From a virus, in the IMG/VR virus record IMGVR_UViG_3300029875_000005, positions 11,208 to 75,207 of that record: a stretch of DNA of 64,000 nucleotides; one strand, written 5' to 3'. A program made the position numbers and the translations under genes. Each line of letters begins with the position of its first letter. The stretch's first letter is position 1. Positions 10,993 to 39,737 of this stretch are shown in pieces. Below the pieces are notes generated by a model. That model saw nothing but the letters and a program-made list of their open reading frames with translations. It searched no databases and was not told the origin of the DNA.

Positions 10993-11652
10993 TTATTTAG
11001 AGGTTTGATTTACGCCTAGCTGTTGCAGGGCGATGGTGTACATCTGGCTAGCTTTGGTATCATCGTAGGCTGAGAGGAGCAGAAAGGCGATATAATAGAT
11101 GAAGGCATTCTTCAGCTTGTCCGGAATGGCTACATCGGTTGTGGAAACGTCTGTGCTCACAGACTTAGGTACGCCCACATAGGTAATGACCGCCGTTGAA
11201 GTCTTGGGCTGCATGAGTATCTTGATTGGATTCTCTCGCATGATGGCAGCCTGTGGGCGATCAATGGTACCCTTGGCGGTATCGTCGTACATCATAAGAG
11301 CTTCATCATCGGTGTCCTCTACTGGGGCGACTGCCTTATACCAAGAAGCGCCACGAATGCGGTTGATGGTAATAATCTCCATATTGGAAGGCATGGTGAT
11401 AACACCGATGTTACGATTAGAATCAAAATCGGACACCTGAATTGTGTCGGAAGTCGAGCCTATGCTCTTGGAATCGGACAGAACAGGCGAAGATGCAGCA
11501 GTAATAGCTATCCAATGCAGCGCATCGTTTATCTTCGACTTGATGATGTTGTCCATATACAAATCATCCTTCTCATCGGTGATTTCCGATGTGTTGTTGG
11601 ATTCCTCGTCTATGCACCAACGTACTGCCTTTATGATTTCCTCTATACTCAT
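10993..11652 (-). CDS. Hypothetical head/neck structural protein
   Basis: 219 aa, between the candidate MCP block and the fibre genes. Confidence 0.5.
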   Translation of the reverse strand: MSIEEIIKAVRWCIDEESNNTSEITDEKDDLYMDNIIKSKINDALHWIAITAASSPVLSDSKSIGSTSDTIQVSDFDSNRNIGVITMPSNMEIITINRIRGASWYKAVAPVEDTDDEALMMYDDTAKGTIDRPQAAIMRENPIKILMQPKTSTAVITYVGVPKSVSTDVSTTDVAIPDKLKNAFIYYIAFLLLSAYDDTKASQMYTIALQQLGVNQTSK

Positions 11653-31994: not shown

Positions 31995-32423
31995 CTATTC
32001 ATCCTTATCTTTTAGTTCAACGAAATCTCCAATACCCAAACGAGCTTTATTGATGCAATCACATATCCACCCCATAAGGTATGCCTGATGCTCATTTCTA
32101 CCATTATACATTCTTTCCAAATCGCATGCATCGTTGATAGACGACAGAACATGAAATGCCTCATGACAGATATTCTTCATAGTCATGTCTTTCTTCTTCG
32201 GGAAGACGACAAGATTGCCGATGTATCCAGCTTTACTCATACATTCGTCATAAACCATACCTCCGTATTTTCCTTCATTCATAGGACTGTCGTTGTGAAC
32301 AAGAGGTTTGCCTTTCATGTCGGTAAAGCATTTGTCTATTTCTTCTTCGGATGTATTGTACATCACCCAAAGTCTCCTTGGGTAAATCTGTGGTATATAT
32401 TCGTAATATCCTTTCTTCTTCAT
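31995..32423 (-). CDS. Minimal HExxH zinc-metallopeptidase-like protein (paralogue-type of 5702..6082)
   Basis: NICHEAFHVLS (HExxH) followed by NEHQAYLMGW. The spacing matches HEMLH...EEACYLLGG in ORF 5702..6082. Confidence 0.55.
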   Translation of the reverse strand: MKKKGYYEYIPQIYPRRLWVMYNTSEEEIDKCFTDMKGKPLVHNDSPMNEGKYGGMVYDECMSKAGYIGNLVVFPKKKDMTMKNICHEAFHVLSSINDACDLERMYNGRNEHQAYLMGWICDCINKARLGIGDFVELKDKDE

Positions 32424-32425
32424 AT

Positions 32426-32647
32426 TTATTTTCCTTTCTTTTTAGGAACATACTCATCTAACTCATCGTCAAACTCATAGCAGTCTGGGCAGTAGTGCTT
32501 ATCACCTATTTCTGCCCATTCGCTTTCCATTGCTTGCTCTTTTGCAGTTCCTTCGTCCAACCAAGCCGCAATACCGTTAAACTCATCAATGAAGGTCTTT
32601 CCACATCTGTCACAAACGACAGAGTACATAGTTACTGGCTTAATCAT
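32426..32647 (-). CDS. Zinc-ribbon protein
   Basis: CDRCGK ... HYCPDC. Confidence 0.55.
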   Translation of the reverse strand: MIKPVTMYSVVCDRCGKTFIDEFNGIAAWLDEGTAKEQAMESEWAEIGDKHYCPDCYEFDDELDEYVPKKKGK

Positions 32648-32999
32648 GGTTGCCTCCCTCCTTTGGCAGTAAATCAGATAAATAAGTCCACTTATCTATT
32701 TGGTAAATAGAAACTTTCTCATCCCAATTTTCTATAGGAGAACGCTCAAAATATAACGCTTCTAACAAACCGTACTTATCCAAGTAAGCAATATTAACAT
32801 CTTTAATTTCAGGCTCTTCACTAGCAGGATGCCACAAGTCCTTCAAGAACTCATTGATAGCCCACTTAGCGCCAGTCTTGAAGCTATCTTTGCCCCTAAG
32901 ACAAATCATTTCTTCCTCAACCTCGCCACTATTGTATCTAGCATACTCTGTCTCAATATGCTTATTAGCAGCTTCTTTTATTTTCTTATCGTCTATCAT
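32640..32999 (-). CDS. Hypothetical protein
   Basis: 119 aa, with overlapping start and stop relative to its neighbours. Confidence 0.55.
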   Translation of the reverse strand: MIDDKKIKEAANKHIETEYARYNSGEVEEEMICLRGKDSFKTGAKWAINEFLKDLWHPASEEPEIKDVNIAYLDKYGLLEALYFERSPIENWDEKVSIYQIDKWTYLSDLLPKEGGNHD

Positions 33000-33217
33000 A
33001 ATCTACCCTTTCTTTTTCTAAGTTCTAACATTCTCCTAGTTCTACGGCTTTCCTTGCCACTAGGAGGGTTACCACCAAGCTTTACTTCTGGGATTTCATA
33101 ATTCATATAGATGGAAGCTTCTTCATTGAGTGCCTTAACTACTTCTTCTTCAATCAAGACTTCTTTAAGTGATACACCAGTTGGTGTTACAATTATCTTT
33201 GCATCGTCTCTAATCAT
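32996..33217 (-). CDS. Hypothetical small protein
   Basis: 73 aa with a basic C-terminus. Confidence 0.5.
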   Translation of the reverse strand: MIRDDAKIIVTPTGVSLKEVLIEEEVVKALNEEASIYMNYEIPEVKLGGNPPSGKESRRTRRMLELRKRKGRL

Positions 33218-33219
33218 AC

Positions 33220-33618
33220 TTACTCCTCATCTTTAGTTCCATACTCCTGTTGTAACTTCTTGACCTCGCTCACGAACTTACTGACATCAATATCACAATC
33301 AATTACCTCTTGATGGTTTTTGATAGCGTCTTCTATCAGATGGGTGCATTCTTCGGTAAAACCACAGATACGATCACCTTCGATGGTGTAGAGATACTTG
33401 TGGGTGTTATAGTAAGCACACTGACAGAGAGATAAGCCCTCTGAGTTGAGGCGGTCCCGTACATCGGGATTGTTGATGCGAAGGACCACCATCTTACCCT
33501 TACTAGAATAGTACTTGCGGTATTTGATTCGGTCTGCAACGATGATTGCTATAGCTACCAACCACAGGATAGATAGCACGATGATAACATCTATTTGAAT
33601 TGTATTCATAACTTTCAT
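33220..33618 (-). CDS. N-terminally membrane-anchored protein
   Basis: TM segment IDVIIVLSILWLVAIAIIVA. Confidence 0.55.
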   Translation of the reverse strand: MKVMNTIQIDVIIVLSILWLVAIAIIVADRIKYRKYYSSKGKMVVLRINNPDVRDRLNSEGLSLCQCAYYNTHKYLYTIEGDRICGFTEECTHLIEDAIKNHQEVIDCDIDVSKFVSEVKKLQQEYGTKDEE

Positions 33619-33632
33619 TTTTTATTGTTTGT

Positions 33633-34340
33633 TTATCTTAATTCGGTCATTCTTCCACGATTTTGAATGTTCAGTTCCTTATTGACATCATGTAGGCTGA
33701 CCGATGGCAATGTATGCGTATCGGGGTCTAAACCCTTCGACTTGCAGTAGTTTCTCCATGCCTCTATGCCATGAGGTTTCTTTGCATCCTCTATCGCTTT
33801 CAGTCGCTCTTCTTCTTTTCTGCGCTCGTCCTCTACCCTTCCACGCTCAAGCAGAAGTTCTTTTTCGTATGAATCAAGTGCTACCATTAAATCTTGTGGA
33901 TTGATGGTAGTAGCAGTAGACTTGTCTTCATATTCATGCTTATACTGATACAGTTTTCCATACTTACCTTCCATTATTCGAATAAAGGCGTAGTCGAGTT
34001 CAGTTGTAGTCCAATAATAGTACTTTGTGCATAATCTCGTTGCAAGCATTTGTATCTGAAACTCCGTGACTATATCGAAGACTCCAAGAAAAGTGAAGAG
34101 TTCTATCAGCCTGCCCTTTACCCATCCGACGAGTGAGCGCAAGCCACCTTGCTTCTGAACACTGAGCAAGGTAGTTGTACTTTTACATATAGCACTCGTA
34201 AAGGAAGCTGGTCGGACATAGTTCGGTTTATCCTTGATAATCGGAACCAAGGATTCTTGCAGCCTTTGCTGCGAGATTGACAGATCGTTGTTGTTCATAA
34301 TCTTGCTTTTGGATGATTTCGTCATTCCAGCACTCGCCAT
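33633..34340 (-). CDS. Hypothetical protein (replication-module position)
   Basis: 235 aa. The listed start overlaps the upstream gene by 113 nt, so the true start may be an internal Met. Confidence 0.5.
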   Translation of the reverse strand: MASAGMTKSSKSKIMNNNDLSISQQRLQESLVPIIKDKPNYVRPASFTSAICKSTTTLLSVQKQGGLRSLVGWVKGRLIELFTFLGVFDIVTEFQIQMLATRLCTKYYYWTTTELDYAFIRIMEGKYGKLYQYKHEYEDKSTATTINPQDLMVALDSYEKELLLERGRVEDERRKEEERLKAIEDAKKPHGIEAWRNYCKSKGLDPDTHTLPSVSLHDVNKELNIQNRGRMTELR

Positions 34341-34716
34341 TAAGATAAGTGAGTGGGTCTTTTCTGTACACAGGGTCGGGCGTGGATGCTACGTAAAGGG
34401 GTGTAGCTTTCATACAAGCTACCTTATCGTTAAGGCTTAACTTCTTCCACTTAGCCTCTGCTTTCTTGCGGCCTCGTTTTTTATTGTAGGCATTCCACCA
34501 TTCCTCAAAAGGCGGTTCGAAGACCAACATCTGTTTTTGCTCTTCTTCAACCTCCAAGTCTACCGTCTCCACTTCGGCATTATTGTCGAACAACTCAGAA
34601 GGCTTGTAATACTTACCCGTAAGCGCCCATCTTGCACCGGCAACAAAAGCATCTTGCAGGGGTTCACTTTCCGAATATTTATTAGCCTCCGAATGGATTT
34701 CCTTTAACGTTTTCAT
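34228..34716 (-). CDS. Conserved phage protein (possible replication/recombination helper)
   Basis: Contains FEEWWNAYNKKRGRKKAEAKWKKLS, a pattern I recall from phage replication-module proteins. This is unverified. Confidence 0.5.
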   Translation of the reverse strand: MKTLKEIHSEANKYSESEPLQDAFVAGARWALTGKYYKPSELFDNNAEVETVDLEVEEEQKQMLVFEPPFEEWWNAYNKKRGRKKAEAKWKKLSLNDKVACMKATPLYVASTPDPVYRKDPLTYLNGECWNDEIIQKQDYEQQRSVNLAAKAARILGSDYQG

Positions 34717-34737
34717 AAGCTATATGATTTTGATGAT

Positions 34738-35169
34738 TTATACCCAACCGGCACCCGAGTTCTCGAGTTCTCGCTTGCAATATTGCAAACCAACTTGATC
34801 GTCGGGTTCCGGAATCATGATACTGCGGACATTTGCGTAATCTATCACGTTTCGGATAACGCTGCTAGCCTCTGCTGTATTGAGGGAAGTGAGAGGCTTG
34901 TATTTGCGGTTGCCTGTCTTGTCTACCTCATCGGTATAGAAGATGTAGCTGCAAACGTTGCGCTGAATATCACGAAGCGTTTCGTAGAAGGTCTGCCCTA
35001 ACTTTAGGGCGAGATAGCTAATCATGAAGTGAAGATAACAAGACTGCTTATCGGTCTGAATGGGGTGGAACTTCTTTAATTCGATATTATACCCACACTC
35101 TTTGGCTTTTTGAACTTCCTTCACGATTCTCAGATAGTCGCGAGGATCATTAGGATTGTATACACTCAT
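34738..35169 (-). CDS. NinB/Orf-like recombination mediator (tentative)
   Basis: 143 aa. TDKQSCYLHFMISYLALKLG and TSLNTAEASSVIRNVIDYA...IPEPDD resemble the lambda Orf layout. A nin-like context (NinG, RecT) supports the call. Confidence 0.4.
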   Translation of the reverse strand: MSVYNPNDPRDYLRIVKEVQKAKECGYNIELKKFHPIQTDKQSCYLHFMISYLALKLGQTFYETLRDIQRNVCSYIFYTDEVDKTGNRKYKPLTSLNTAEASSVIRNVIDYANVRSIMIPEPDDQVGLQYCKRELENSGAGWV

Positions 35170-35179
35170 ATTATTATAA

Positions 35180-35767
35180 TTACATTAGATTGATTACTAA
35201 ACCCTTGCAAGCATAGTCGGTTGGTACACCGAGGACCTGCTGGAATTTGTTTACGGCAACATCGGGGTTAAGATGGCGTGCTGAACCATGAATGAGGACG
35301 ATGCGCTTGGCGGTATTGGCTGCCTTGCATTCGTTGAGATACTCGATAGAGTGAGCCAGACTCATGTGGGAAAGACGGATGCGGTCGGCTTGGCTGACTA
35401 TCGTCTTGCCTTCGTTTACGGCTTTCTCTAGGAGAGAATCATCATAGTTGCATTCTGCCAAGAAGTACCGGCACCCTTGAACTACATTTTCCATATTGTA
35501 GCAATCGGTGAAGAACATCATGGTTCCCATTTCCGGATGATGAATGAGGAAAGAGAAGCAAGGAACATCGTGTTCTACCTTCATCGGGGTGATACTGAAA
35601 GCACCTAGATGATAGGTCTGTTCTTTAATCATGCCTTTTACTCCCTTGCATTTCTCGGATAGCTCTTCGGTAGAGTAAGCATCGATTCCTGCTTTCAGAA
35701 AGTCTTTGGCATTTTTTGCATGATCGCCTTTCAGCCGTGGGAGTGACTTATAATCACTCCCACGCAT
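35180..35767 (-). CDS. MBL-fold hydrolase (YycJ/WalJ-like), C-terminal 181 aa of a split gene
   Basis: From ...GDHAKNAKDFLKAGIDAY onward it carries MBL motifs VEHD, FFTDCY, AECNYDDSLL, RIRLSHMSLAH and LIHGS. The listed Met and first 14 aa are probably not native. Confidence 0.7.
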   Translation of the reverse strand: MRGSDYKSLPRLKGDHAKNAKDFLKAGIDAYSTEELSEKCKGVKGMIKEQTYHLGAFSITPMKVEHDVPCFSFLIHHPEMGTMMFFTDCYNMENVVQGCRYFLAECNYDDSLLEKAVNEGKTIVSQADRIRLSHMSLAHSIEYLNECKAANTAKRIVLIHGSARHLNPDVAVNKFQQVLGVPTDYACKGLVINLM

Positions 35768-35904
35768 TTTGATGTTTTGAGGTTTGCAACTTTCTTTACT
35801 TCCTGCAACGGACGACCTGCCTCTATACAGAGCTGCTGACCATTACTAGCCTCCAGTACGTAGGCATTGCCAAGACTATTGCTATTTACGACTATTAACT
35901 TCAT
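35731..35904 (-). CDS. MBL-fold hydrolase, N-terminal 57-codon fragment ending ...ISHSHG-stop
   Basis: My translation is MKLIVVNSNSLGNAYVLEASNGQQLCIEAGRPLQEVKKVANLKTSKCVGVIISHSHG*. It starts 2 nt after the recT stop and is not in the ORF track (under 60 aa). Confidence 0.65.
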   Translation of the reverse strand: MKLIVVNSNSLGNAYVLEASNGQQLCIEAGRPLQEVKKVANLKTSKCVGVIISHSHG

Positions 35905-35906
35905 AC

Positions 35907-36809
35907 TTAACTCAAACTAAACTTTTGAGCCTGTGGCTGCTCATCATGTACTTCCTCGGCATTCACGACTTCACCGGTGTCATTACTGATTGTGATAACG
36001 TTCTTTGCCTCGGCAAACTCCTCATCACGCTGAACGATGGCAGAAGGAGCCTCATCAAGGTTCGTAATGTCATTTGATTCGATAGAGAGTTCTCCCCACT
36101 TCGACAGGAGTCTTCTGAGAACAGTCTTGATGGCCATACTTTCGAAGTTGGAATACCATCCTACGCCTTCGCCACTTCCGTTGGCAGCCTGCTTGAGAGC
36201 AATTTCCTTCAGTTTCTCTGCATCAACCTTTTCGCTGAACTTAACGGTAGGACTATACTGCTTTGCATAGCGACATACCTCATCAAGGGTCATATAGAGA
36301 AGTTTGGTAAGACCATCCTTCTTCTTGAAGTAGGCGAAGTAACCGATTGGAGTATTTGAAATCTGAGCACCCGAAAGATCAAGCTTTCCTGTAACCTTGT
36401 CGTAATGGTTGAACTCGCCTTCGTATACGACATCAGCGTTGATTGTCTCGTACTTGCCGGTACGCATAGCCAACTGGAGATAGCCCTTCGTACCGATAAC
36501 GAGCGTAGGAGTCATTACTCCTTTGTTCTTGAACGGAAGGAGATATGCCTGTCCTAGCTGCTTATTGAGAGGCAAGCGAAGGGAGGCTGCTTTCAGAGCC
36601 TCAGCCATCAAATCATTCGGTTTGCACTGGAGCAACTTTTCATCGGATGAAAAGATTTCCATAAGTGAGGTGCAGAAAGCACCTTTATTCTCCTTTAGTG
36701 AACTCTGCAACAGGCTTTGGTAATAACTATTGTTCATTACCGCCTGAAAATTCTTAACTGCTACTGCCTTCTGAGAAGGCTGTGCTTTTGCTACTGCTGT
36801 TTCTGCCAT
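35907..36809 (-). CDS. recT: RecT-family single-strand annealing recombinase
   Basis: LPLNKQLGQAYLLPF...LVIGTKGYLQLAMRTGKYETINADVVYEGE is the RecT core pattern. Confidence 0.85.
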   Translation of the reverse strand: MAETAVAKAQPSQKAVAVKNFQAVMNNSYYQSLLQSSLKENKGAFCTSLMEIFSSDEKLLQCKPNDLMAEALKAASLRLPLNKQLGQAYLLPFKNKGVMTPTLVIGTKGYLQLAMRTGKYETINADVVYEGEFNHYDKVTGKLDLSGAQISNTPIGYFAYFKKKDGLTKLLYMTLDEVCRYAKQYSPTVKFSEKVDAEKLKEIALKQAANGSGEGVGWYSNFESMAIKTVLRRLLSKWGELSIESNDITNLDEAPSAIVQRDEEFAEAKNVITISNDTGEVVNAEEVHDEQPQAQKFSLS

Positions 36810-36811
36810 GA

Positions 36812-37063
36812 TTACTTCTCCTCTTCTTTATGATTGATTAATTCCTTAGCGATACCAGCCAAGGCTATTGTTCCCAAAGCAAGGTTGATTTCACCACTTT
36901 CCGGAAAAAGTTCTTTTGGATCAACCTCTACGCTATCGTGGTTATCTAACCACTCCTTTATCCGGCTCGAATCCGTTCCGTCCTTCATGCCTCCTCCTAA
37001 CGCTAGAGTACCTTTGATAAGGTCTTTGTCAACCAACATTTCTAATTTTAAAGTTTCTGCCAT
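36812..37063 (-). CDS. Hypothetical protein
   Basis: Start taken at MAETLKLEM. The listed upstream extension is unlikely. Confidence 0.5.
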   Translation of the reverse strand: MAETLKLEMLVDKDLIKGTLALGGGMKDGTDSSRIKEWLDNHDSVEVDPKELFPESGEINLALGTIALAGIAKELINHKEEEK

Positions 37064-37082
37064 GATTTTTATATTATTAAAT

Positions 37083-37511
37083 TTAATCTTCTTTCTTTTC
37101 AAAAGAAATATCAATTCTACTAGTCCAACTTTTCTCAAAACTTCCAATTAGACCATCAACAACAGCCTTAGCGACTGCATTAGAACCTGCCTTTGACGTA
37201 ATCTGCTTTCTTACAGCCTCTCTTATAGCTTCAGCAGATTCATCTATCTGCTTCTTCACTTCGTCTTCAACGAGTTCTTTAATACGTTTGTTGAGGTTTA
37301 TTTCTATCCAGCTATATCTGTTATCTCCACTATAGCTAGAGATTTTTCCATCACTATTGACTTTTGTCGTGAGAACAGCATTAACCATATTGGTAACAAC
37401 ACCTTCCCAACCATTGAGCGCCGAAAGAACATGAGCCTGTATCGTCTTCTCTATAATCGGCTTAATCATATCCGCAGATAGATTAAGAGACATTAAATTA
37501 TTTTCTGCCAT
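37083..37511 (-). CDS. Hypothetical protein
   Basis: 142 aa. Confidence 0.55.
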   Translation of the reverse strand: MAENNLMSLNLSADMIKPIIEKTIQAHVLSALNGWEGVVTNMVNAVLTTKVNSDGKISSYSGDNRYSWIEINLNKRIKELVEDEVKKQIDESAEAIREAVRKQITSKAGSNAVAKAVVDGLIGSFEKSWTSRIDISFEKKED

Positions 37512-37516
37512 AATTT

Positions 37517-37726
37517 TTATTTACTTATTGATTTGATTAATTCTTCTTTTGTTTTAAACACTTCGCTTTCTTTCCTTGTTGGGAAAACTGCGAACTTATA
37601 CTGAATAGAGCAAGGTGCCTCGCCTATCTGCTGAAAGAATACGCCCACGATATTTGCATGTCGGATTTTGTACCCATCGAGCAGATAGACTGCGTCACCT
37701 ATATCGAACTTCGTCTTGATTTGCAT
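37517..37726 (-). CDS. Hypothetical small protein
   Basis: Start taken at MQIKTKFDIG to avoid a long overlap with the upstream gene. Confidence 0.45.
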   Translation of the reverse strand: MQIKTKFDIGDAVYLLDGYKIRHANIVGVFFQQIGEAPCSIQYKFAVFPTRKESEVFKTKEELIKSISK

Positions 37727-37742
37727 GATATGTTTCAATCCT

Positions 37743-39737
37743 TTATGACAAAAGCGAAATATGCTCAACCTTCAGTTTATCATCATTTGATACTACCAGA
37801 CGGATTTGCTGACCACCTGTGCTGAGCGGATGGTTAACGCTTTCGCATTCATCGAGCACAACAGGAACCGATACATCATAGAACTGACCGATAGTGCGCG
37901 CGATGTCGATTCCGGCATTCACCTTGGCGGCACCATTGAGGCGGCTGTAAGGCACACCATTGTGATAACATTCGCAATAAGGCTTTTTCTCACCATCGAG
38001 TTTTGGAAGGAACAGACTCCATTTTACGAAACGGAAGTGCTGATTAACCTTATCTTCGAGAGCCTTGCAAGACAACTGATAGAACTCGTTTGTGATGTTG
38101 AGTTTATCATCAATATCATCAAGCTGCTCCTGAAAGATGGCTTTATCCTTCTGCGCTGCTTCGATATGAGTCATTGTGTTGTCGTAAGATGCTTTTGAGG
38201 CGAGGAGTTCGAGGACTTCATCATATCTGTCAGAAAGCGGCTTTCGCTCTTCAGCGAGTGTTTGAAGTAACTTGTCATTATCCTCGTTGCTATCTGATGG
38301 TTTGTCGAGTTCTGCCTGCAACTCGCCAATCTCTTTCACTACCTGCTGATACTCTTCCTTGGAGGCAAGAATCTCCTCGTAGGTACTAGGAACATCTGCA
38401 TCAACATCTGCCTTATGCTTTTCAGCCTCTGAGAGGGCTTGGTGAGCCTTGACGAGCTGGTTTGTGGTGGTCTGACGATCATCATTCAGTTTATCCAACT
38501 CTTTGTTGAGTTCGGTGTATGCGCTTTGGAGTTTGGCAAACTCATTGTTGAGTTCTTTCATATCCTCAGCCTTGCGAGAATTGAACCGGTTCTGAGATTC
38601 CTGTTTAAGGAGCTGAACATCACCGAGAGGGAGAGCCTGACCGCAATGAGGACAGAAACCTTCCTTATCATCCCATTCCCAAGTGCGCTTGGCAATCTCA
38701 TCGCTGCGCTTGTTTAAGTCGCTAACCTTCTTCTTGCACTCTTCAATCTGAGCGTTTATCTGAACCTCAGTGGTAGGATAGCCACTCATAACTGCTTTGA
38801 GGTCTTCAACCGTAGATTCTGCCTTATTGAAGGCTGCGTTGGCGTTGAGAACATCGCTTTGATGCTTGGTCATGTTATCGGTAGACTCCTTGTCTGCGCC
38901 CTGCTCCATCATTCGCTTGCTTTTTTCGGCAAACTCAATCTTCTTGCGGATTCCGTCAAGGCGAACTCTATCTGCTCCACCTGTGCGAATCTGCTGAATC
39001 TTGTTGTCTATCTCTACCAGCTTTTCTTTCAGCTCAGTCTTTTCTTTCTCCATGACCTCCCAATCCTGCTTTGGTGGAAGGGTCTTGTCAAGTTCGGCAA
39101 GTCTGATAGGGACCGCATCGAGTTCCTTCTGAACTTCTGTGCGCTTGTGCTTGAGGTGGTGAAGGATGGCATCAATGTCTTTCTTTTCGAGGAGTTCAAC
39201 AAGATAATCATACTTCTCTTCGCCCTTCGTGATGTCTTCGACTGAAATGTCACCTGCCAACGACTGAAGGAATGCACGCTGATTCTGCCAAGTCATACCA
39301 AGGAACAGACTAGGACAGATGCACCACGAAAATGGGTCTTCTTGGAAGATGTCGTTAACTACTTTGCCGAAATCTCCGGCGGTAGTCAATTCTCCACCAA
39401 CATAGTACTTGAAGGTATTGGTGCATTTATCACCTTTCCACTTATCGGTCAGAACTCGCTTGAACGAGATTTCATCACCATCTACCAACATAACCAACTC
39501 GGATGAATGCTCTATCTCCTTGATAATATTGTGATTCTCATCGAAGGTTTTGATGTCGAGCTGCATGCCGTTGGTATCAGTACCGAATAATGTGTACATG
39601 ATGGCGTTACCGATAGTGCTCTTGCCTCTTCCGTTGTCTCCCGAGATAACGGTTAGGTCTTCTCCGAAATCGAAGACTCCGGCACGGATGCCACAGAAAT
39701 TTTGCAGTTTAAGTGTCTTGAATAGGATTTTCTTCAT
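37743..39737 (-). CDS. SbcC/Rad50-like AAA ATPase with coiled coil and zinc hook
   Basis: Walker A VISGDNGRGKST, a long coiled coil with central CPHCGQ, and C-terminal VVLDECES (Walker B/D-loop region). Confidence 0.75.
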   Translation of the reverse strand: MKKILFKTLKLQNFCGIRAGVFDFGEDLTVISGDNGRGKSTIGNAIMYTLFGTDTNGMQLDIKTFDENHNIIKEIEHSSELVMLVDGDEISFKRVLTDKWKGDKCTNTFKYYVGGELTTAGDFGKVVNDIFQEDPFSWCICPSLFLGMTWQNQRAFLQSLAGDISVEDITKGEEKYDYLVELLEKKDIDAILHHLKHKRTEVQKELDAVPIRLAELDKTLPPKQDWEVMEKEKTELKEKLVEIDNKIQQIRTGGADRVRLDGIRKKIEFAEKSKRMMEQGADKESTDNMTKHQSDVLNANAAFNKAESTVEDLKAVMSGYPTTEVQINAQIEECKKKVSDLNKRSDEIAKRTWEWDDKEGFCPHCGQALPLGDVQLLKQESQNRFNSRKAEDMKELNNEFAKLQSAYTELNKELDKLNDDRQTTTNQLVKAHQALSEAEKHKADVDADVPSTYEEILASKEEYQQVVKEIGELQAELDKPSDSNEDNDKLLQTLAEERKPLSDRYDEVLELLASKASYDNTMTHIEAAQKDKAIFQEQLDDIDDKLNITNEFYQLSCKALEDKVNQHFRFVKWSLFLPKLDGEKKPYCECYHNGVPYSRLNGAAKVNAGIDIARTIGQFYDVSVPVVLDECESVNHPLSTGGQQIRLVVSNDDKLKVEHISLLS

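Follow-up and report, generated by a model that had tools for sequence, protein, structure and literature searches.

Programmed bypassing is so far known from essentially one example in bacterial viruses, gene 60 of phage T4 and its homologs, and from the byp elements of yeast mitochondria. The 50-nucleotide (nt) gap of gene 60 and the HNH gene MobA have been described as one mobile cassette, similar bypassing is unreported in other phages, and the 5' stem-loop of gene 60 is not conserved among its homologs (Manning & Atkins, bioRxiv 10.1101/2022.08.31.505936, reviewing Bonocora et al. on the cassette). Related forms of recoding are covered by Atkins et al. 2016 (PMC5009743): the synthetic 'stop-hops' of E. 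coli, in which matched codons flank a stop codon (Weiss et al. 1987), no natural in-frame stop-hop being known; the release factor 2 (RF2) site, a CUU that shifts +1 at UGA(C); and 'savior' indels, defined as those compensated by recoding. Here we consider a window of 64,000 nt, the whole stretch of viral DNA that was analysed (IMG/VR record IMGVR_UViG_3300029875_000005, positions 11,208 to 75,207), and in it a gene of the metallo-beta-lactamase (MBL) fold, on the minus strand at 35904..35180, that is interrupted by 8 nt inside its HxHxDH metal-binding motif.

The messenger RNA (mRNA) at the junction reads AGU CAC UCC CAC GGC UGA AAG GCG AUC AUG. A first open reading frame (ORF1) ends at the UGA, and a second (ORF2), in the -1 frame, holds all the remaining MBL motifs, from GDHAKNAKDF... 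onward to 35180; deleting the 8 nt UGAAAGGC (35733-35726) yields a protein of 238 amino acids (aa) that contains HSHGDH. An earlier, sequence-only reading of the window had located this break between matched GGC codons around the UGA, had remarked that skipping it restores a perfect HxHxDH, and had proposed a candidate for translational bypass. Every coordinate is confirmed on the minus strand, as is the restored motif, and comparison lends strong support to the candidate, since the same motif position is gapped, by 1, 4, 5, 6, 7, 8 or 10 nt, in diverged lineages. What that reading overlooked is a perfect 13-bp hairpin that ends at the first G of the GGC preceding the stop.

We consider it probable that the 8-nt insert is a programmed coding gap, crossed by P-site re-pairing (a stop-hop or bypass), and that it belongs to a set of endonuclease-associated 'savior' indels. 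A ribosome on ORF1 arrives at GGC (Gly57) with UGA in the A site, and release would be slow enough for the peptidyl-tRNA-Gly to unpair; the 13-bp hairpin, its 3' arm still within the ribosome, would re-form behind and bias the mRNA forward; the peptidyl-tRNA would then re-pair just downstream, giving the full-length enzyme of 27 kDa with an exact HxHxDH metal site, and ribosomes that terminate would release a 57-aa peptide instead. A hop across the window gap would create the junction peptide ...VIISHSHGDHAK..., and the hop product spanning the junction would contain ...CVGVIISHSHGDHAK.... On this view the window gap is one member of a family that interrupts phage phrog_392 hydrolase genes at this codon; the shortest member would be a +1 shift like that of prfB (CUU UGA C), the in-frame stop-hops (CUU UAA CUU, GGA UAA GGA, GGC UGA GGC) would be intermediate, and the longest would be a 10-nt hop (GGC UAA CAAA GGU). 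It is the immediate stop, the cognate landing that tracks the residue, the exact restoration of HxHxDH and the covarying hairpin that lead us to favour programmed P-site re-pairing; to judge from the sequences, these design features fit translation, and neither a dead gene nor two separately made polypeptides. Two steps of this account we infer: the hopping of ribosomes itself, and the protection that the gap would give against the HNH enzyme discussed below.

The position of the break is the first line of evidence. A profile of the N-terminal fragments, searched against 5.8 billion proteins, returns 76 clusters of short N-fragment proteins, with identities to the window fragment as low as 37%. 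Exactly at the x residue of HxHx end 66 of the 76: 41 in SHEHG, 11 in SHSHG, 4 in SHAHG, 9 in endings of the HEHL type, and 1 a codon later (SHSHLD). That 66 of 76 end at one residue means that the site is specific, and that these are not scattered lesions. The second line is the structure of the junctions, of which we read 13 types in DNA (Table 1): the gaps measure 1, 4, 5, 6, 7, 8 or 10 nt, fall in all three frames and use all three stops. All 13 types have a stop immediately after the take-off codon, and 10 have a landing triplet cognate to the tRNA of that codon; the two codons follow the residue, being Gly with Gly, Leu with Leu, GAU with GAC for Asp, and CUU to UUU. In the window, the triplets found within the gap over all frames are UGA, GAA, AAA, AAG, AGG and GGC.

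Table 1. Take-off codon, gap and next codons at the junctions, read in the DNA of representative lineages.
Take-off	Gap	Next codons	Loci	Remark
CUU	U	GAC CAC/U	L168, L169, L177	Equals CUU UGA C
GAU	UGAC	CAU	L174	Asp codon is the take-off
UAU	UGAC	GAC CAU	L180, L182, L184	Exception
GGU	UAGGC	GAC	L173, L181	
GGU	UGAGC	GAC	L171	
CUU	UAACUU	GAC	L167	
GGA	UAAGGA	GAC	L170, L176	
GGC	UGAGGC	GAC	L175	
GGC	UGAGGGC	GAC	L172	
GGC	UGAAAGGC	GAU	Window and 26 loci	
GGC	UGAAAGGA	GAU	L127	
GGC	UAACAAAGGU	GAC	11 loci	

Beyond the gap, the downstream frame is open in every lineage, over its full length or to the contig end. We call type A the junction of the window and type B the 10-nt junction. Two gapped type-B alleles, when compared, have a ratio of non-synonymous to synonymous substitution rates (dN/dS) of 0.18 upstream and ~0.05 downstream; L078 and L124 differ by a synonymous proportion pS of 0.29 and a non-synonymous proportion pN of 0.055. 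In the type-B genes linked to HNH-1, an endonuclease family described below, all sampled alleles are gapped, dN/dS is 0.05-0.19, and there is no stop or indel at pS of 0.24-0.70. The heptanucleotide CUU UGA C is common to genes that are just ~45% identical. In the in-frame 6-nt types (L167, L170, L175, L176), no in-frame start codon lies between the stop and D-H, the first in-frame Met of L170 being ~80 codons downstream; a separately initiated C-terminal fragment therefore cannot supply those ligands, and the sequences of these four lineages indicate that D-H is reachable only through hopping or readthrough. A transposon footprint or target-site duplication was ruled out, the gap lengths and sequences having no consistent duplication pattern.

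The geometry of the engineered E. coli stop-hops is found exactly in L167, L170, L176 and L175, and the window has the same geometry with a 2-nt spacer. The E. coli cases, however, are engineered and of low efficiency, whereas the cases here are natural and conserved, and have an added hairpin. The likeness to prfB is closest in L168, L169 and L177, in which its heptanucleotide stands unchanged at this position of the motif and the shift would restore L-D-H. CUU UGA C is absent from the window, whose variant would be an 8-nt hop and not a +1 shift; the upstream Shine-Dalgarno stimulator of prfB is not expected in Bacteroidota, and RF2 autoregulation is not directly applicable, because the gene is not a release factor. 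With the mitochondrial byps of Magnusiomyces capitatus, the gaps share short inserts in essential coding regions, wobble-tolerant matched codons and a spread like that of mobile elements; the byps, however, are GC-cluster elements of 27-55 nt at many sites, whereas here a single motif position receives 1-10 nt.

The third line of evidence is the hairpin, whose 3' arm consists of the S-H-S-H codons and ends on the first G of the take-off codon. It folds at -24.4 kcal/mol (z = -5.8) in the window, and type B has a different stem of 13-14 bp in the same place (z = -7.2). When the protein is held fixed and the codons are resampled from local usage, none of 2000 samples folds as well as the native sequence for type A, and 0-1 of 2000 for type B. 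Anchored on the take-off codon, the stems are in register across nine gapped lineages, and ten positions have pairing-preserving changes on both sides; polymorphisms within a stem are at loop positions or wobble-compatible. Intact outgroups that encode nearly the same peptide use stem-breaking codons (CAT GAA CAT and GCA in L080-L093; GTT GGC ACT CTC ATA TCT CAT TCC CAT in L166), with folding energies of -2.8 to -19. That the hairpin is a by-product of the peptide is ruled out by the synonymous-codon null together with these hairpin-free outgroups. Strong stems go with Gly-type gaps of 6-10 nt, gaps of 1-5 nt have no stem, and the stem of L167 measures 9 bp.

Two smaller structures can be mentioned here. 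In type B (L050:2950-3025), an outer helix pairs AUGGU.AACCU with AGGU.GACCAU, so that the landing GGU-GAC-CAU region pairs with sequence upstream of the hairpin, and the folding energy of the complete element is -35.3 kcal/mol (z = -7.2). In the window, a possible GCU-GAAA-GGC element directly follows the 13-bp hairpin and would bring the take-off and landing codons together.

The protein obtained by joining the two frames scores 29.3 bits on PF12706 Lactamase_B_2 (cut-off 27) and 23.3 on PF00753 Lactamase_B (cut-off 22.7), cut-offs that neither fragment clears alone, and it matches phrog_392, 'metal-dependent hydrolase', at E = 4e-48. Its structure model is an MBL fold, an alpha-beta/beta-alpha sandwich, with a predicted local distance difference test (pLDDT) of 95.8 and a predicted template-modelling score (pTM) of 0.91; the break falls in the metal-binding loop, which leads from strand 47-51 to helix 57-60. 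Foldseek places the model closest to the ELAC/YhfI/RNase Z group, with template-modelling (TM) scores of ~0.77 to 1zkp and 6kns (ELAC/YhfI group); the Apyc1 structures 7u2r, 7u2s and 7t28 score lower, ~0.62-0.64, and two Porphyromonas phage homologs at 37% identity carry an Apyc1-like annotation. Residues H54, H56, D58, H59, H109, D131, H177, H203 and H208 are invariant in 34 of 34 aligned homologs, and the spacing of HxHxDH varies neither among these nor within the Pfam families: a contiguous HxHxDH with the downstream His and Asp ligands is obtained only once the 8 nt are removed. Homologs from cultured phages are below 40% identity, and all of them have an intact gene; a megablast of the locus against GenBank phages gave no match, so that this set holds no cultured relative.

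The insert is an old and common polymorphism. A scan of viral contigs yields 47 loci at 97-100% protein identity, 24 of which have an uninterrupted gene of 714 nt and 23 the identical 8-nt insert; with the window counted, 24 of the 48 near-identical alleles from Segatella copri phages thus have the gap and 24 lack it. The exact 195-aa ORF2 product is found on 168 contigs of up to 251 kb, including two NCBI proteins of Segatella copri isolates, and the exact 57-aa ORF1 product on 100 contigs, which identifies the element as a phage or prophage of Segatella copri and the insert as a common natural allele. Over a 6.7-kb alignment, the distances within and between the two allele classes are equal, ~0.103. 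The insert is found on many mosaic haplotypes and has no linkage to single-nucleotide polymorphisms (SNPs) at least 39 nt off; as a control in the same population, the r2 between SNPs falls to ~0.05 within 50-100 nt, so that an old polymorphism would be unlinked from anything at least 39 nt away. This decay of linkage between common SNPs is in itself a case of extreme fine-scale mosaicism, in a population of RecT-encoding Segatella phages (window 32180-38904, L001-L047).

Selection on the gene is the same in both classes. For the gene as a whole, the ratio of non-synonymous to synonymous diversity (piN/piS) is 0.11, and for the part downstream of the break it is 0.06; gapped and intact alleles do not differ, and piS is ~0.11. 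The only further lesion among the 48 alleles is a 1-nt deletion at MBL nt ~40, in ORF1 of a gapped allele, L027 (IMG/VR 2878936817_000004), which may be a truly dead copy or may owe the deletion to faulty assembly. The sequence-only reading had offered a very recent pseudogene as the other explanation of the break: this was discarded on the strength of the unchanged purifying selection, the single extra lesion in 48 alleles, half of them gapped, the presence on more than 100 contigs, and a site common to diverged lineages. The assembly artefact of which it had warned does not survive either, the identical insert being on more than 100 contigs, cultured isolates included. It had also held that an uninterrupted gene in related phages, with the insert a minority or unique lesion, would speak against bypassing, and had asked if the 8-nt gap and both GGC codons are conserved: half of the relatives do carry the uninterrupted gene (24 of the 47 loci), but the insert is neither unique nor a minority lesion, and in the other 23 the gap and the GGC pair are identical. 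An immediate stop and a cognate landing triplet would occur in a random 8-nt insert with a chance of ~(3/64)x(2/64), or ~0.0015, a calculation that the comparative data make irrelevant. The viral scan with P0002 gave no locus, and the scan of a genome collection gave three only.

The association with homing endonucleases comes from loci L048-L053, reached through the 186-aa proteins P0044 and P0150. Between recT and the MBL gene, these have a free-standing HNH_3 gene of 200 aa, and another insert, of 10 nt, interrupts their MBL gene at the codon that is gapped in the window: CAU GGC UAA CAA A GGU GAC CAU. L050 belongs to the same phage species as the window: identity is 95-100% as far as the recT stop and again 98-99% beyond MBL nt ~450, and the interval holds a foreign block of ~1 kb at 52-62% identity that comprises the HNH gene and the initial ~430 nt of the MBL gene with the gap in it. 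This block looks like a homing-endonuclease co-conversion tract. A different, diverged phage (L078/L079, L124-L126) has an HNH gene 87% identical and the same 10-nt gap, and in L127 an HNH gene 74% identical adjoins an MBL gene with a window-type gap (GGC UGA AA GGA GAU CAU) and the window hairpin. Three further metagenomes (L111-L113) have the exact gap and hairpin of the window within a strongly diverged MBL gene; the patch common to them and the window is ~130 nt long and ends ~8 nt past the gap. The HNH-1 gene of L048 (2255-2851) is decayed, in three tblastn pieces, and the 10-nt gap is kept.

Two unrelated HNH_3/NUMOD families, HNH-1 and HNH-2, are found at the recT-MBL junction. Counting only loci that were retrieved regardless of gap state, 10 of 11 loci of the HNH-1 family are gapped, against 27 of 94 loci without HNH-1 (Fisher p ~1e-4, on loci that are not independent); HNH-2 occurs with either gap state. 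As for HNH-2 itself, it is an HNH_3/NUMOD4 protein of 234 aa, present in 6 of 47 loci of the window's phage population (L038:2316-3020, also L014, L021, L022, L031 and L039) and in L176:822-1523; in these alleles the first ~20 MBL codons are diverged (ITVNTGS), a hint at a different target close to the start of the gene. A group I intron or intron-encoded endonuclease at the break was ruled out, since the HNH gene is free-standing between recT and the MBL start, although no Rfam search was made. The window has no HNH gene. It has no tRNA gene either, so that a phage-encoded suppressor or special tRNA finds no support in the window.

The analogy with T4 gene 60 in the sequence-only reading concerned the codons; with HNH homing-endonuclease genes adjoining many gapped alleles, it extends beyond that proposal. 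Both systems have a Gly take-off with a stop directly after it, a landing codon that is identical or wobble-related, and variants whose take-off can shift to an Asp GAU/GAC pair. In both, a free-standing HNH gene stands ~170 nt upstream of the gap, which interrupts a conserved catalytic region, and the cassette moves horizontally with its flanks, some lineages, here L048, having lost the endonuclease and kept the gap. The differences are as clear. The host gene here is an MBL hydrolase and not a topoisomerase, the host phylum is Bacteroidota, the gaps measure 1-10 nt (8 in the window) and not 50, and the endonuclease stands between genes with its target not split. There is no evident nascent-peptide signal, the ORF1 peptide having no resemblance to that of gene 60, nor an A-site take-off stem-loop or an arrestor of the Shine-Dalgarno kind; where T4 has a stem-loop with the take-off codon in its 5' side, the window has only the predicted 3-bp GCU-GAAA-GGC, and the dominant RNA feature is the strong covarying 5' hairpin. 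There is no sequence homology to the gene 60 cassette, and with an MBL hydrolase as the host gene the origin would be independent.

By this analogy, the gaps are probably 'savior' indels, in which the target of the HNH endonucleases that settle between recT and the MBL gene is destroyed while recoding keeps the gene usable. Under such an immunity model, intact sites of the CACGGCGAT type would be HNH-1 targets, and gapped sites would be spared; the window allele, with a gap and no endonuclease gene, would either have lost the endonuclease or have received the gap alone by gene conversion. The broadest form of the proposal is that phrog_392 genes carry recurrent gaps of 1-10 nt at one HxHxDH codon, decoded by tRNA re-pairing with hairpins driving the longer hops, and serving as recoding-buffered immunity indels against endonucleases, which would make them a second independent origin of the T4 MobA/gene 60 strategy, common in human-gut Segatella phages. 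For this whole chain taken together, we see the chances as evenly balanced.

Table 2. Features of the interrupted gene and its surroundings in the window.
Feature	Coordinates	Strand	Remark
recT	35907..36809	minus	Stop 2 nt before the MBL start
ORF1 of the MBL-fold gene	35731..35904	minus	57 codons (MKLIVV...VGVIISHSHG) and UGA stop
AUG in the ORF2 frame	35765..35767	minus	12 codons 5' of GDH, at the foot of the hairpin
5' hairpin	35736..35764	minus	Perfect 13-bp stem CGUGGGAGUGAUU / AGUCACUCCCACG, loop AUA
Possible mini stem-loop GCU-GAAA-GGC	35726..35735	minus	3 bp and GNRA loop, minimum free energy structure
Take-off codon GGC (Gly57)	35734..35736	minus	
A-site stop at take-off, UGA	35731..35733	minus	
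8-nt coding gap UGAAAGGC	35726..35733	minus	Stop, AA and landing codon
Spacer AA	35729-35730	minus	Between UGA and landing GGC
Landing codon GGC	35726..35728	minus	First cognate triplet within the gap, any frame
ORF2, resumed coding	35180..35725	minus	GAU CAU (Asp58-His59, 35725-35720) to TAA 35182-35180; 181 codons

Several observations weigh against programmed re-pairing, or at least against parts of it. Three junction types break the rule of cognate landing: L127, which lands on GGA; L171, which lands on AGC, a non-cognate triplet without which there would be no UGA; and that of L180, L182 and L184, whose UAU UGA C GAC fits neither a hop nor a clean +1 shift. One HNH-1-like gene, in L183, stands beside an intact MBL gene, the sole non-gapped case of the 11. 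The intact alleles in the window's own population retain the hairpin, which may thus have another role, possibly at the level of DNA, and the corresponding 5' stem-loop of the gene 60 homologs is not conserved, unlike here. The patch of hairpin and gap moves by recombination, and the gapped alleles could each be young, their downstream frame being kept clean through exchange with intact alleles. Finally, simple stop-hops in E. coli are inefficient.

The three loci L180, L182 and L184 deserve a description of their own: around nt 2241-2290 they read CAU UAU UGA C GAC/GAU CAU, beside an HNH-1-like gene, and their downstream frame is open for 185 codons. A +4 hop would lead to a non-cognate landing codon, and a +1 shift to one extra Asp.

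That the gapped allele is simply null is the strongest of the alternatives, although we regard it as unlikely. The gap would destroy the target of a homing endonuclease and kill a dispensable MBL gene, and would stay near 50% through drive or a benefit in immunity; the frames would look conserved only as a result of frequent recombination with intact alleles and of the recent arrival of the patch in each background. The HNH association and the transfer of cassettes fit this view, as do the ~130-nt patch common to diverged genes, with one edge at the gap, the intact half of the population, and the loss of linkage within 50-100 nt, by which the downstream sequence is effectively unlinked from the gap. 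It leaves unexplained, however, why a stop is immediate in every junction type, why the landing is cognate and tracks the residue in 10 of 13, why the codons are chosen so as to form a covarying hairpin at the take-off site, and why the canonical CUU UGA C recurs in genes so far apart. Nor does it account for the HNH-1-linked type-B genes, which remain under selection and free of lesions at considerable divergence while all the sampled alleles are gapped.

Somewhat more doubtful is a split gene, in which the 57-aa ORF1 product would associate non-covalently with a separately initiated 195-aa ORF2 product, begun at the AUG at 35767, to give an active enzyme. There are precedents in T4 gp39/gp60 and in the NrdA halves of Aeh1, split by endonuclease insertions. 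MobA divides its metal site between two ORFs and is still active (bioRxiv 10.1101/2022.08.31.505936). In-frame AUGs are present 5' of GDH in type A (35767) and in type B, where AUGGCUAA overlaps the stop and translational coupling is possible, and a split would account for purifying selection on both pieces and for a stop at a fixed residue. In the 6-nt types, however, there is no start between the stop and D-H, a classical frameshift site is present wherever the junction is CUU UGA C, and the AUG of type A is at the base of a hairpin of -24 kcal/mol; the matched landing codons and the hairpin would be left without a function.

Conventional recoding with no hop, that is, a -1 or +2 shift in the window and readthrough in the in-frame types, is improbable. 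It would add 1-3 residues to the motif (HSHGLKGDH, HSHGKGDH) and suppose that the enzyme still works; L180, L182 and L184 (UAU UGA C GAC GAY CAU) are most simply read in this way, as a +1 shift that gives HEHYDDH. The number of extra residues would nevertheless vary with the type of gap, whereas the spacing of HxHxDH is invariant in the 34 homologs and the Pfam families; the earlier reading had argued likewise that a plain -1 slip (HSHGLKGDH) breaks the spacing of the metal site. There is, moreover, no slippery site, in agreement with the absence of a slippery heptamer noted before, and the cognate landing triplets would go unexplained. Hardly any credence is due to an artefact of assembly or sequencing, or to a phase-variable, hypermutable switch, which the lack of linkage between the indel and neighbouring SNPs had suggested: the identical insert in many independent assemblies and isolate genomes refutes the artefact, and the switch was dropped since linkage among SNPs decays equally fast, there is no repeat tract or invertible element, and different gap sequences elsewhere obey the same rules.

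Should programmed re-pairing be true, these genes would provide the first natural in-frame stop-hops, and a graded natural series at one site, from a +1 shift to hops of 4, 5, 6, 7, 8 and 10 nt, with built-in controls in the intact alleles of the same population and in outgroups with and without the hairpin. The sliding range of peptidyl-tRNA, the contribution of a 5' hairpin and the identity of the stop codon would become directly testable, and homing endonucleases and recoding would have co-evolved more than once. In a full-text search of the literature, no paper was found that connects recoding with an MBL-fold gene of a phage. Such genes are split or dropped by gene callers and pseudogene filters, and the product of the window stands in public databases as 'hypothetical proteins' of 57 and 195 aa.

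Two minor observations concern annotation. Locus L165 (CAAGQJ010000014.1), binned as a metagenome-assembled genome of a 'Bacilli bacterium', has this Segatella phage locus at 100% identity, and its assignment to Bacilli is probably a binning error. In the window, there is an overlap of 113 nt between two listed ORFs of the minus strand, 34228..34716 (replication-initiation-like) and 33633..34340 (together 33633-34716), and the true start of the downstream gene of this pair is probably an internal ATG.

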